This document shows positions 56,440 to 61,041 of a stretch of 64,000 nucleotides of DNA, in pieces (within the stretch, counting starts at the first letter, position 1; every line of letters starts with the position of its first letter). A model generated the notes under the pieces. That model was not told where the DNA came from. It made no database searches and worked only from the letters and a program-made list of their open reading frames with translations. Position numbers and translations under genes: made by a program. This stretch comes from Kofleriaceae bacterium (lineage in GTDB: Bacteria > Myxococcota_A > Polyangia > Haliangiales > Haliangiaceae). Location: NCBI GenBank assembly GCA_015075455.1, contig JABTUH010000016.1, positions 1-64,000 on the forward strand, read 5' to 3'.

Positions 56440-57400
56440 CGGAGGCTGCGCCGGGCGCCTGGCCGTGGTCCCGGGCCGCGCGCCGCTGGTGGCGTGCGGC
56501 GCTGCGCGCGCGCGCGACCCGCGTGCTCGGCGGCCTCGCGGTGGTGGTGCCCGGCGCACGGCGCACCTCGCCGGCCGCCAACCGCGCCGCGCAGGCGTGG
56601 CGTCCTGGCCGTGAGACGCGCGGCGGCCGGCGACGCGCCGCCGGTCGTGGCCGTCGTCGACGCCTTGGCGCGCGCTGGCGCGCGCGCGCCGCGCAGCAGG
56701 CGAGCGCCTTGCGCCTGGTCGGCGACGACTGGCGTGGCGGCCGCGTCGCGCGCCCGCGTCCGACTGCCGCCTCGGCGCCGCGACGCCGACGCCGGCGCCC
56801 GCGGACTGCGCCGCGCGCGCGCCGCTCGTCCGCCTACGCTGACGCCGCCGGCGATCGCGCGCGGTCGATCGGGGCCGTGCTCGCGCGCGCGCTGCAGACC
56901 GGCGCCACGCGCACGCTCCAGGTGGAGGCGGCGCCGGCGCCGCGCGTCGAGCGCCCGCCGCCTGGCCGCGGCCCCGGCGTCGGCGCGCGCCCGTGGTCGC
57001 CGATCTGTCGCGTTGCGCGCCGCGCTGCGCGCGCCGGCGCGTCGCCCGGCCGCCGGCCGGCGCCGGCGCGCCGCGATCGCCGCCGCGTGCTCGACGCCGA
57101 GGCCCTGGCCCTGGCCCGCGCTCGGTCGACGCCGTGGTCGCCGTCGAGATCGTCGATCTGCTGGCCGCGCCCGAGCGCCTCCTGCGCGCCGCCGCCCGCG
57201 CCCTGCGCCCGCGCGGTCGCCTGATCCTGGCCACGCCCGACCCGTCGCTGGGCACCGGCGACGACGCCCGCCTGCGGGCGCTGCTCGCCGCGGAGGGCTG
57301 GCGCGTGGTCGCCGACCGCGCCGGCTTGCCCTGGATCCGCGTCCACGGCCCCCGCCACGTCCAGGTCTACTTCGTCGACGTGCTCGCGGTCGTCCGCTGA
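56440..57400 (+). pseudogene. RlmA-like class I SAM-dependent methyltransferase (Cys-rich zinc-ribbon-like N-terminus, methyltransferase core), frame-broken
   Basis: N-terminal CGGC...C..A. The C-terminal VDAVVAVEIVDLLAAPERLLRAAARALRPRGRLILATPDPSLGTG resembles the RlmA tail (DAIIRIYAP..ELARVVKPGGWVITATPGP). The end overlaps the convergent ATP-grasp gene by about 30 bp. Confidence 0.4.
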
Positions 57401-58524
57401 CGGCGGCGGGGCCGGGGCTTGACCGGCCGCGCCGGGCCGCGGGCCAGGGCCATGCGCGCGAGCTGCTCGATCGTCTCCTCGAACGTCCGGCCGCTCTTCT
57501 CGGCGCACAGCATGAAGCCGGTGCCCTCGGCCAGGTTGGGGTTGGGGTTGACCTCGAGCACGTAGGGCTCGCCGTCCTCCTCGATGCGGAGATCGACGCG
57601 GGCGTAGTCGCGGCACTCGGTGATCTTGTAGGCGGCGAGCGCCACCTCGCGGATGCGGTTGCCCAGCCGCCGCGGCAGCCCCTTGGCCGGGACCTGGACG
57701 TCGAGGGCGTAGAAGTCGGGCGACAGCGGATCCCACTTGGCCTCGTAGGTGAGGATCTTGGGGTTGAACTCGTCGCCCTCGCGCTCGTCGAACTCGAGCT
57801 CGAGCAGCGGCAGGACCTCGGGCGGATCGTTGCCGAGGATCGCGACGTGGATCTCGCGGCCCTCGATGAAGCGCTCGACCAGCGCCGACTGCTGGTACTC
57901 GCGGAGCACGCGCTCGACCTGGACCTCGAGCTCGGCGTGCTCGTGGCAGACCGCGTCCCTGTGGATGCCGCCCGAGGCGTCCTCGCGGGCCGGCTTGACG
58001 ATCACCGGGTACTGGACCTCGAGGTTCTTCGGCACCGGCAGCTCGCGCACCAGCGTGTACTCGGGCGTCGGCACGCCCTGCGACTCGAGCAGGACCTTGG
58101 TCCGGAACTTGCGCTGGCAGGTGAGCAGGCAGCCCGGGGTGGCGCCGGTGTACGGGACCTGGAGGAGCTCGTAGAGCCCGGCGACGTAGGCCTCCTGCAC
58201 CGGCTTGTCGTTGAAGAACTCGACCAGGTTGAAGACGGCGTTGGGCTTGAACGTGCGCAGCGCGCCGAGCAGCTCGTCGAAGCTCTCGCTGATGTTGACG
58301 CCCTTGACCTTGTAGCCGCGCCCGCGCAGCGCGTCCATGATCGCGTCGAGCTCGTCGGCGTCGGTGCCGATGTCGGCCGCGGTCTCCGTCGGGTTCCACG
58401 GCAGGGGCTGCGGGTCCTTGAACTTCTCGTACGGATCCTCGCCCACCGAGTTCCAGAGCACGAGGATCCGCTCGCCGGAGCCGGACCTAGTTCTTCTTGC
58501 GGGTCGATTTCTTGCGGGCGGCAC
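57367..58524 (-). CDS. Ddl-type ATP-grasp ligase (D-alanine--D-alanine ligase family fold)
   Basis: Intact 385-aa ORF: GERILVLWNSVGEDPYEK... VFNLVEFFNDKPVQEAYVAGLYELLQVPYTGATPGCLLTCQRKFRTKVLLESQGVPTPEYTLV... YPVIVKPAREDASGGI..EIHVAILGNDPPEVLPLLELEFD..FNPKILTYEAKWDP..ARVDLRIEEDGEPYVLEVNPNPNL. The start may lie within the first 20 codons, which overlap the peptidase gene end. Confidence 0.8.
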   Translation of the reverse strand: MPPARNRPARRTRSGSGERILVLWNSVGEDPYEKFKDPQPLPWNPTETAADIGTDADELDAIMDALRGRGYKVKGVNISESFDELLGALRTFKPNAVFNLVEFFNDKPVQEAYVAGLYELLQVPYTGATPGCLLTCQRKFRTKVLLESQGVPTPEYTLVRELPVPKNLEVQYPVIVKPAREDASGGIHRDAVCHEHAELEVQVERVLREYQQSALVERFIEGREIHVAILGNDPPEVLPLLELEFDEREGDEFNPKILTYEAKWDPLSPDFYALDVQVPAKGLPRRLGNRIREVALAAYKITECRDYARVDLRIEEDGEPYVLEVNPNPNLAEGTGFMLCAEKSGRTFEETIEQLARMALARGPARPVKPRPRRRQRTTASTSTK

Positions 58525-59443: not shown

Positions 59444-59461
59444 GTCCGCACCATAGCGGAA

Positions 59462-61041
59462 TCAGGCGCCGGCCGGGCGATCGCGGCCACGTCGTTGGCG
59501 CCCGACGATCGCCGCGAGCGCGAGCGCGAGGCCGCCGGCCAGCGCGCCGCGCCCGCCTTCGCCGCCGCCGCCGTCGCAGCAGCCGCCGGGGCTCGCGCCC
59601 GGCTCGACCCCGCCGTCGCCGCTTCCGGCCGCGCCGTCGCCGCCGGGCCCGGCGTCGATCGCCACGCATCCGCCCGCGCAGTGCTCGAACGCGCCCAGGT
59701 CGAGCGGTCCGTCGACCGGACGGGCGACGGCGGCGCGGTGGACGACGTACTGCTCGCTCACCGCCGGCACGCCGGCGGCCAGGGGGGCGCCGACGTCGCG
59801 GGCCATGGCGTCGGCGCGCAGGCGGAGATCGCCGCCGGCGACGTCGACGAAGCCGGGGTCGCTGCCCTCGAGCCGGCCGCCGAGATCGGTGATGGTGCCG
59901 GTGGCGCCGGCGAACGAGGTCGTGAACCCGGGCTTGATCCAGTTCCAGCCCCAGGCCACGTCGCCGTCCTGGGCCACCAGCTCGACGTTCCCGCCGGGCG
60001 CGGTGGCATGGAAGATGTTGCCGCGGACCTCGGCGCGCTCGCCCGGCGACGACAGGCGGAACAGGGTCGTGCGATCGGCGCGCGTCGACACCACGGTGTT
60101 CTGGTAGAAGTGGAGCGTGCCCTGGCGGTAGGCCCCGAGGTTGCCGCTGTCGCCGCCGTAGTGGACGATCTGGCGGTTGCCCTCGCCGTCGCCCTCGACC
60201 AGGACGTTGCCGTAGACCAGCGTGGTGCGGTACGCGGGCAGGGTCGACAGCGTCGACGAGTCGACCAGATCGAGCTGGCGGTTGCCGTCCTCGATCCAGT
60301 TGTAGCGGACCACCAGCCCGGCCGAGCGGTCCTTGAGGTTGTTGCCGCTGGCGCCGGGCGCCAGCGGCCCGTACCAGTTGTACTGGAAGACGATGCCGCG
60401 GGCCTCGGTGTAGCTGTTGTGGACGTAGATGTCGCCGACCACGCCGTTGCCGTGGACGTGGTTGCCCTCGATCACCACGTCGCTGGCGGCGCTCGACACG
60501 AACAGGCCGTTGGCGGAGTCGCGCAGGACGCAGCCGCGGATCGTGACGTGGGCGCCGTTCTCGATGTGGATCGCGGCGGCGTTGCCGGCGTAGCGCTGGG
60601 TGGCGCCGGCGGCGTCGCGGAAGCCGTGGTCGGGGTGACCGCCGCGGACGTCGAGACCCTCGAGGACGACGTGGCTCGGGGCGTCGGCCGGCGCGTTCGA
60701 GCCGCCGACCTTGATCACGCTGCGGACCTGGTTCCAGTAGCTGAGCTGGGCGCGGGTGGTCGCGTCCTCGCCGTCGATCACCGGCAGCTCGCCGCCCGGC
60801 CCCGGCACCCCGCGCACCACCAGCGGCGCGGCGGCGGTGCCGCCGTTGCCGACGACGAACTTCGCCCGGTACGGCGTCGGTCGCCAGGCGATCTCGACCA
60901 CGTCGCCGGCGCCCAGGCGCTCGAACGGCACCTCGCCGACCTCGGCCAGCGCCTGGCCGGGGCCGACACGATAGGTCTCGGCGGCGGCGGGCGCCGCGGT
61001 CAGCGCCGTCAGCGCCAGGACGATCGAGCCGCGCATTCGCA
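59462..61041 (-). CDS. Secreted right-handed parallel beta-helix (pectate-lyase-like, PbH1 repeats) protein with MYXO-CTERM-type C-terminal sorting tail
   Basis: Start MRMRGSIVLALTALTAAPAAAETYRV at 61041 is a signal peptide. Repeated NG..V.I.GC/N...NG.. beta-helix turns are present (IHIENGAHVTIRGCVLRDSANGLFV, VVIEGNHVHGNGVVGDIYV). The tail GGCCDGGGGEGGRGALAGGLALALAAIVGRQRRGRDR matches the Cys-Gly, hydrophobic, Arg pattern of MYXO-CTERM. The 31 upstream codons in the track ORF are not needed. Confidence 0.8.

Follow-up and report, generated by a model that had tools for sequence, protein, structure and literature searches.

A 64,000-nucleotide stretch of DNA from a Kofleriaceae bacterium (hereafter the window; contig JABTUH010000016.1, positions 1 to 64,000) carries on its minus strand the neighbouring genes of an ATP-grasp ligase of the D-alanine--D-alanine ligase (Ddl) clade and of a papain-fold cysteine peptidase. 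A survey of related loci demonstrated that these two genes form a conserved linked pair, which was found adjacent at 25 out of 25 loci in three different arrangements, as the original prediction for this DNA had in part anticipated. By analogy with known systems, the pair may constitute a cytoplasmic two-gene module in which the ligase would make a linkage on a shared substrate and the peptidase would remove, trim or edit it, a reading that we hold at about even confidence. The ligase would activate a carboxylate other than D-Ala, most likely via an acyl-phosphate, and join it to an amine, yielding an amide or isopeptide bond; the peptidase would hydrolyse, trim or edit the bond made by the ligase, or else prepare the carboxylate. 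Both enzymes would act on the same molecule, and the Arg- and aromatic-rich helical domain and the basic tail of the peptidase probably serve to bind a substrate of likely anionic, peptide-like nature. We infer the direction of each of the two reactions as well as the nature of the substrate.

To describe the linkage, loci were collected from GTDB species genomes (80 loci) and from contigs for individual proteins. Homologues of the six window genes were located by tblastn, and the locus classes given here rest on these matches. In a neighbour-joining tree the peptidases fell into three clean clades, T, D and S, which matched the arrangement of the genes. Clade T (12 loci including the window; 55-63% identity to the window peptidase) has the peptidase and then the ATP-grasp gene in tandem, with gaps of about -85 to +48 bp between the BLAST matches. 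Clade D (13 loci; about 29-57% identity), which holds the two deepest branches (L088, 68% GC, and L089, 51% GC), has the two genes in divergent or convergent order, with 66-211 bp between the matches. An ATP-grasp homologue adjoined the peptidase at each of these 25 loci, which range from 51% to 75% GC and stem mostly from Myxococcota (Kofleriaceae, Haliangiales). The pairing is thus kept through tandem, divergent and convergent orders, and the genes beyond it vary by locus. The 66 loci of clade S (about 50-53% identity) lack an ATP-grasp gene within the available flanks, which measure less than 1.8 kb on one side for 20 of these 'solo' loci. In six genomes a solo copy of the peptidase occurs alongside a paired one, indicating that clade S represents a paralogue and that the pairing is ancestral.

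The original prediction had attached the pair to a third gene, encoding a secreted right-handed beta-helix protein, and had noted thioredoxin (Trx), Coq4 and TauE genes ahead of it on the same strand. The latter position was corroborated, and the Pfam matches for TauE, Coq4, Trx, Beta_helix and, for the ligase, Dala_Dala_lig_C were all above threshold, but neither the membership of the beta-helix protein nor the association with Trx, Coq4 and TauE withstood the survey. Homologues of the beta-helix protein, Trx and Coq4 accompanied the pair only at locus L008, which is from the same species (97-99% identity); no beta-helix homologue occurred within about 6 kb at the other 24 paired loci, and the TauE probe had no match in any fetched locus. 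A coupling of all three genes, in which the pair matures, modifies or otherwise serves the secreted beta-helix protein, is already largely refuted by this survey and appears extremely unlikely to us. It is suggested by the packing of the genes on one strand, 18 bp apart, and by the same order in L008; however, L008 is not an independent case, members of the beta-helix family are common in phyla in which our search found no pair, and the beta-helix protein is exported while both enzymes are predicted to be cytoplasmic. The beta-helix gene, which is probably co-transcribed with the pair, lies in its operon incidentally in the source species, and so do the genes for Trx, Coq4 and TauE. More generally, no third gene was conserved beside the pair across the paired loci when genes were called heuristically at 87 loci and clustered, with a GC3-based gene caller that missed some genes. 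Solely local synteny was observed, comprising cluster c12 at six D loci and clusters c11 and c14 at a few T loci. This suggests that the substrate is encoded elsewhere or is a general cellular component.

Some further observations concern the surroundings of the peptidase genes. In clade S (L018-L087), the peptidase ends a recurrent same-strand run of a UPF0047/YjbQ gene (c7), a 248-aa gene (c2), a 138-aa gene (c4) and the peptidase itself, e.g., at L020 4522-6906, L023 1341-4228 and L034 4574-6909; upstream, the opposite strand carries a gene (c3) that was recognised as SulP-like by eye only. The products of c2 and c4 have no Pfam match, and the run may reflect Kofleriaceae synteny rather than a functional operon. 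On a metagenome contig of 58% GC (L093), a second ATP-grasp gene of RimK/GSH-S type (6590-7414, plus strand; PF08443, 7e-8) follows the Ddl-like one with a 4-bp overlap, forming a locus of one peptidase and two ligases. Some D-clade pairs adjoin genes of mobile or conflict type, namely phage-like baseplate genes (Baseplate_J, GP46, Mu Gp45; L004 1-5773), an OLD-family nuclease and an rve integrase (L007 1-3558) and a bpMoxR/bpX5/bpX6 system (L005 11448-16936), with no PADLOC match to the pair itself.

The ligase is a member of the ATP-grasp superfamily, as its domain scored above the Pfam threshold for PF07478 (Dala_Dala_lig_C; 3.1e-32, 112.2 bits, cut-off 24) and also for PF02655 (35.2 bits, cut-off 23.2) and PF02786 (24.8 bits, cut-off 19.8), which agrees with the Ddl type originally proposed. 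With all 42 NCBIfam models of Ddl and Van enzymes the score was below the cut-off and at best about half of it (PRK01372, 126.9 bits against 243; TIGR01205, 123.2 bits against 245.65). The best matches among proteins in the PDB were VanA and Ddl (E 4e-21 to 1e-17), restricted to residues ~104-362. Pfam thresholds were also missed for RimK (17.0 bits, cut-off 21) and for tubulin tyrosine ligase (TTL; 17.9 bits, cut-off 20.1), and a PHROG match to 'S6 glutaminyl transferase' was marginal (E 0.0099).

Residues were mapped by aligning 24 family members with Escherichia coli DdlB, the reference sequence of which was checked by its length and 15 landmark residues. Eight ligase residues (K139, K177, E217, K263, R309, D311, E324 and N326) were invariant in the 24 members and correspond to DdlB K97, K144, E180, K215, R255, D257, E270 and N272, the ATP/Mg/acyl-phosphate set; by this intact set the ligase looks catalytically competent. 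The D-Ala1 triad E15-S150-Y216 is not kept: S150 is replaced by a near-invariant Ala (A183) and Y216 by W264, and for E15 the counterpart is doubtful (possibly D30) owing to the weak alignment of the N-terminal part. The motif HGxxGEDG likewise gives way to a conserved E-F-F-N-D-x3-Q-E-A, in which N105 takes the place of H63. The D-Ala2 carboxylate loop (NTxPG..T..S motif) reads N-P-N-P-[ND]-L-x-[DE]-G, in which G276 has become N/D330, S281 is variable (T/V/A) and L282 is G/A, and the lid loop is longer than in Ddl. A canonical D-Ala-D-Ala ligase was therefore rejected, given scores of about half the NCBIfam cut-off and the replacement of both the D-Ala triad and the D-Ala2 loop; the enzyme is, as judged from its residues, derived from Ddl but no bona fide Ddl. 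The complete ATP/Mg acyl-phosphate machinery together with the rebuilt pocket suggests that the carboxylate it activates is most likely not that of D-Ala. The corresponding NCBI protein P0121 has been named 'D-alanine--D-alanine ligase' by the Prokaryotic Genome Annotation Pipeline (PGAP), as have many homologues at the Joint Genome Institute (JGI), and for P0121 and its homologues this name is probably an over-annotation.

The window ligase has a basic C-terminal tail, and short K/R-rich tails are also found in the other T-clade ligases. D-clade ligases have instead a conserved P-[ST]-D-x-L-L-[RL]-E about 20 residues past the catalytic domain, followed by long acidic low-complexity tails (examples P0151-P0229, against P0122-P0149 of clade T, in the ligase alignment). 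The charges of the ligase and peptidase tails could act as an electrostatic docking device or as a substrate mimic.

The partner peptidase adopts a papain-like C39 fold in its N-terminal domain, as determined from an AlphaFold2 model (predicted local distance difference test score, pLDDT, 87.8; predicted template modelling score 0.83), and this fold is closest to true C39 peptidases and to the Pei isopeptidases. Structural neighbours of this domain include PeiR, phage Lysin A, endolysin domains and other C39-like or papain-clan enzymes; matches in BFVD were weak and to endolysin peptidase domains. CtaG matched much more weakly than the C39 peptidases, and neither the BtrH_N profile nor the closest fold match placed the protein with BtrH and CtaG. 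The catalytic Gln (oxyanion hole), Cys, His and Asp/Asn occur in the canonical order of the C39 clan. The catalytic dyad that had been proposed for a C39-like thiol peptidase, a Cys within QPNDFTCGP and a His within EHWITVVHH, corresponds to Cys12 and to His95, the first His of its motif; both are invariant, as is Gln6, in 91 peptidase sequences from all clades, and position 111 is Asp in 90 of these and Asn in one. With Q6, C12, H95 and D111 conserved, the peptidase looks catalytically competent. For the second, helical domain of about 150 residues no known structural relative was found. The last ~20 residues form a disordered K/R-rich tail (KRRRRKPRAARKKSTRKKN; pLDDT 52-58 in the model), and such tails recur in the family with varying sequence and length. 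This tail and the lack of a signal peptide had been pointed out before, and Cys12 is indeed so near the N-terminus that it leaves no room for a signal peptide. The peptidase is accordingly predicted to be cytoplasmic, as is the ligase, which requires ATP. The wealth of Arg and aromatic residues in the helical domain, as well as the basic tails, points to an anionic partner.

In Pfam the window peptidase matched only PF11814, at 18.4 bits and under the cut-off of 25. Among 31 family members, matches occurred to PF11814 (DUF3335) in four, to PF13529 (C39_2) in two, to BtrH_N in two and to PF03412 (C39) in one, all of them weak (E >= 4e-4). The window protein had no match in NCBIfam, PADLOC or PHROGs and nothing meaningful in a phmmer search of PDB sequences. 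All 658 homologues with E<=1e-3 (90% clusters) are unnamed or 'hypothetical', and the family comprises 903 representatives at 50% clustering. The protein is a so far unclassified cysteine peptidase of C39 type, covered by no Pfam family, whose second domain is novel. A defence or phage origin of the pair and the beta-helix protein was considered and rejected, as PADLOC gave no match, PHROGs only the marginal RimK-like one and BFVD weak ones. P0381 (L090 6001-6834), which is related to the peptidase over its full length but only very distantly (22% identity, profile E 2e-18), was found on a contig of 33% GC with a Por_Secre_tail gene, probably from Bacteroidota; it keeps Cys, His and Asp and has no ATP-grasp gene nearby. 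The occurrence of this relative indicates that the two-domain architecture is older and wider than Myxococcota.

The features of both enzymes also bear on the question of whether the pair serves cell-wall peptide metabolism in a non-canonical way, i.e., by making an alternative dipeptide or re-ligating murein peptides together with cytoplasmic cleavage of stem peptides or precursors, as in Van-like precursor remodelling (VanA ligase and VanX hydrolase) or peptidoglycan recycling. We consider this unlikely. It is favoured by VanA and Ddl as the closest solved relatives of the ligase (E 4e-21 to 1e-17), by the retained acyl-phosphate residues R309, K263 and S184, by the name already given to P0121 by PGAP and by the resemblance of the peptidase fold to PeiR and endolysins. 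However, the ligase scored far under every Ddl/Van NCBIfam cut-off, the E15/S150/Y216 triad and the G276/S281/L282 loop are not conserved, HGxxGEDG is replaced, and murein peptidases lack an Arg-rich helical domain and polybasic tail such as the peptidase has. In addition, no mur or fts genes stand beside the ligase in the window or at the ~25 paired loci, none of which lies in a mur/dcw cluster or by VanH, VanX-like or recycling genes. A true Ddl next to a standard peptidoglycan amidase, the case that the original prediction had set against itself, is likewise not what was found, as the substrate residues are replaced.

A different arrangement of the same two activities would be processing followed by ligation, in which the peptidase would cut a precursor (e.g., after Gly-Gly) and the ligase would attach the exposed carboxylate to a target amine, a functional analogue of ubiquitin-like or Pup tagging. 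ATP-grasp enzymes activate carboxylates as acyl-phosphates, the two genes are tightly linked, their products would share the cytoplasm, and the ligase has a rebuilt pocket and an enlarged lid loop relative to Ddl, all of which would suit such a role. Against it, no conserved small open reading frame (ORF) or tag gene accompanies the pair, in which gaps amount to tens of bp up to ~200 bp and flanks vary, and we know of no precedent for a Ddl-clade ATP-grasp enzyme ligating a protein C-terminus. The gaps within the operon, 18, <=25 and 34 bp, leave no room for a conserved precursor or tag ORF, nor do the 66-211 bp between BLAST matches in the divergent relatives, and the precursor peptide that had been suggested for a search near the pair was accordingly not found as a conserved gene. 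We regard this tagging scheme as quite improbable.

Several points weigh against the proposed two-gene module of ligase and opposing peptidase. The shared substrate is proposed from gene linkage and analogy. Each enzyme can exist apart from the other, as 66 of the 91 loci belong to the solo clade S and at least one ATP-grasp homologue, at L092, stands alone. The pairwise identities of peptidase and ligase correlate (Mantel r 0.94, reached in 0 of 2000 permutations), which is consistent with co-inheritance but is likewise predicted by plain vertical descent. The fold neighbours PeiR, Lysin A and endolysin keep a cell-wall peptide open as the substrate, and enzymes of the C39 clan can be transacylases, e.g., BtrH and CtaG (PMC7183216). 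The module may, in turn, represent an unrecognised cytoplasmic peptide- or protein-modification system of mostly Myxococcota, in which a Ddl-derived ligase and a C39-type (iso)peptidase work on a macromolecular anionic substrate, an idea that we regard as rather doubtful. Candidate substrates would then include tails of proteins, peptide tags and peptides linked to a nucleotide; the (iso)peptidase, with its novel substrate-binding domain, would reverse or prime the bond made by the ligase, and through the solo paralogue of the peptidase the system would reach a second locus.

In the window, the pair ends a series of six ORFs at short spacing on the minus strand (57.3-63.8 kb), transcribed in the order TauE, Coq4, thioredoxin, beta-helix protein, 318-aa peptidase and ATP-grasp ligase (Table 1). 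The coding signature was strong in the last three genes (GC3 0.96-0.97 against GC2 0.43-0.55), and their codon-position GC fits real genes of a genome of ~75% GC; each product has hundreds to thousands of homologues. The close packing of three minus-strand genes described earlier was confirmed, with 18 bp (59444-59461) measured between the stop of the beta-helix gene and the peptidase start. Of the ends given for this run, the left one (57367) was correct and the right one (61041) one base short, as the Met of the beta-helix signal peptide MRMRGSIVLALTALTAAPAAA is at 61042. Peptidase and ligase genes overlap by 38 bp with GTG 58524 as the ligase start and are separated by 25 bp with GTG 58461, the start implied by P0121 (364 aa, 100% identical). 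The window stems from a Kofleriaceae metagenome-assembled genome, and P0121 and locus L008 are 99-100% identical to it. The methyltransferase fragment on the opposite strand overlaps the 3' end of the ligase gene by 34 bp, indicating that the minus-strand transcription unit ends there. A scan for promoter and terminator consensus sites between the genes returned none and is uninformative at such GC content; Rfam families and tRNAs were not found in the window. Horizontal transfer of the pair was rejected: its overall GC (0.69-0.70) is below that of the flanks, but its GC3 (0.97) is the same as that of the neighbours, so that the dip is due to amino-acid composition.

Table 1. Features of the ligase-peptidase locus and its flanks in the window.
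Feature	Position	Strand	Details
Ddl-clade ATP-grasp amidoligase	57367..58524	-	385 aa from GTG 58524; 364 aa from GTG 58461
Two-domain cysteine peptidase-like protein	58487..59443	-	318 aa
C39-type papain-fold catalytic domain, residues 1 to ~135	59039..59443	-	Gln6, Cys12, His95, Asp111
Family-specific helical C-terminal domain, residues ~150-296	58556..58996	-	rich in invariant Arg, Trp, His, Tyr
Polybasic C-terminal tail KRRRRKPRAARKKSTRKKN, residues 300-318	58490..58546	-	read from sequence
Secreted right-handed beta-helix protein	59462..61042	-	Pfam Beta_helix 6.9e-8
Thioredoxin	61077-61523	-	Pfam Trx; upstream of beta-helix gene
Methyltransferase C-terminal fragment	56993..57400	+	Pfam Methyltransf_11 4.9e-5, Methyltransf_23 2.2e-5

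The beta-helix protein consists of a signal peptide, the beta-helix and a Cys/Gly-rich, hydrophobic, Arg-rich C-terminal tail. It belongs to a very large family of secreted proteins spread over many phyla, among them Acidobacteriota, Gammaproteobacteria and Phycisphaerae. Some members bear the name 'polysaccharide-degrading enzyme', and the C-terminal anchor can be exchanged within the family, being of dockerin, Ig-like or MYXO-CTERM type. The MYXO-CTERM label that had been given to the window protein was not confirmed: the NCBIfam model had no match at E<=10 with either the last 62 residues or the whole protein, but the tail has, by eye, the order Cys-Cys, then Gly-rich, hydrophobic and Arg-rich, and 74%-identical homologues are named 'MYXO-CTERM domain-containing protein' at JGI. 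Such a tail is plausible.

Other parts of the locus showed peculiarities. Between 56400 and 57400 the GC content rises to 82-83%, and the methyltransferase is recognisable over its C-terminal ~100 residues only; its N-terminal part is absent from the same frame, suggesting that the frame is shifted, the assembly faulty or the start wrongly set. A fragment of an RluA-type pseudouridine synthase precedes it (55805-56407, plus strand). The thioredoxin has a His/Asp-rich C-terminal tail, HAHEHGPDCDHDHDHGHGHDHDHGPDDKHEP (~61080-61170), which arises from 3.6 tandem copies of a 12-bp unit (61103-61145). This tail resembles a metal-binding one and is unusual among TrxA/TrxC-type proteins. A further tandem repeat of 18/36 bp, GGGCTCGGGTTCGGAGTC, with 6.4 copies of 18 bp lies at 63438-63576 within the long ORF that contains TauE. 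As the TauE Pfam domain begins at residue ~121 of this ORF, the repeat probably either precedes the true start or adds a low-complexity extension to the N-terminus. The minus strand at 49800-55900 holds long overlapping ORFs (e.g., 53068-54558 with a weak tetratricopeptide repeat (TPR) match), which resemble one very large TPR-rich gene; this gene may be frame-broken, or simple frame criteria may fail there.

The coupling of an ATP-grasp amidoligase to an enzyme of the papain superfamily is an established theme, and amidoligase/peptidase neighbourhoods have reportedly been surveyed by Iyer et al. in 2009. Our literature search, which did not cover the content of that survey, found no paper on the present ligase-peptidase family. 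New with respect to the theme are the Ddl clade of the ligase, the C39-fold peptidase with a domain that has no known relative, and the lack of a Pfam family for it. At least 120 clusters among the top ligase matches carry the name 'D-alanine--D-alanine ligase' while failing the family thresholds and lacking the D-Ala pocket, and the constant partner peptidase has neither a name nor a Pfam family. The pairing of ATP-grasp and papain-fold genes has already pointed to new chemistry on two occasions, those of butirosin and closthioamide, and the reversible modification of protein tails in eukaryotes follows the same ligase/peptidase logic. If the proposed module holds true, a third version, derived from Ddl and present in predatory and social Myxococcota, would offer a tractable entry to a new amide-bond modification cycle, for which the invariant Cys12 is an obvious site for a trapping mutant. 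The pair is thus a well-defined lead rather than a discovery.

Compared with Ddl and VanA, the window ligase has in common the C-terminal ATP-grasp domain PF07478 and all ATP/Mg/acyl-phosphate residues. It differs in an N-terminal domain that is barely alignable with that of Ddl, in the basic or acidic C-terminal tails of its family and in its position, as the paired ligases stand beside a cysteine peptidase and, at the ~25 loci, never in a mur/dcw context. The C39 leader peptidases (PCAT1, ComA, AMS transporters) share the fold of the window peptidase; the latter, in contrast, is a standalone and predicted cytoplasmic protein with an additional ~150-residue helical domain and a polybasic tail, remains under threshold in the Pfam C39 models and is not fused to an ABC transporter. 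Neither an ABC transporter nor a leader-peptide ORF was found beside the pair in the window or at related loci. The pseudomurein endoisopeptidases PeiR, PeiW and PeiP cleave the Ala-epsilon-Lys isopeptide bond (PMC4592898). They are lytic phage enzymes that act extracellularly on archaeal walls, whereas the present peptidase is chromosomally encoded in Myxococcota, is predicted to be cytoplasmic and has another C-terminal domain.

The BtrJ/BtrH and CtaD/CtaG systems also couple an ATP-grasp enzyme to a C39-clan protein of ~300 aa with an N-terminal Cys (C11 in CtaG, C12 here). CtaG, whose partner is the ATP-grasp enzyme CtaD, matches PF11814 and BtrH_N and uses the triad C11/H128/D144 (PMC7183216). 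A similar role in small-molecule biosynthesis, in which the ligase would lengthen an amino-acyl chain and its partner would be a transacylase relying on Cys, not a hydrolase, would fit the residues C12/H95/D111 placed beside the CtaG triad and the weak PF11814 or BtrH_N matches in two to four of the 31 family members. We nevertheless judge it very unlikely, as 95% of CtaD homologues are accompanied by a carrier protein (PMC7183216) and none is conserved beside the pair. A carrier-protein gene was present only at L094, where a PP-binding gene ~4 kb away has no counterpart at any other locus. The known systems are thiotemplated, carrier-dependent and located in biosynthetic clusters, but no such cluster, and neither a decarboxylase nor other biosynthetic genes, is conserved near the pair, and its ligase belongs to a different ATP-grasp clade, that of Ddl.

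In glutathionylspermidine synthetase/amidase, the model named in the original prediction, and in tubulin tyrosine ligase/vasohibin, an ATP-dependent amide ligase is opposed by a thiol hydrolase of the papain superfamily acting on the same bond. The window pair differs from the former in that the two activities would reside in separate genes, with no match to the CHAP or GSP_synth Pfam families in either ligase or peptidase at E<=0.01, and from GspS and TTL in the Ddl clade of its ligase, the TTL match being sub-threshold (17.9 against 20.1 bits). Both systems nonetheless embody the ligate/hydrolyse logic that is proposed here for the Ddl-derived ligase and its C39-type peptidase.

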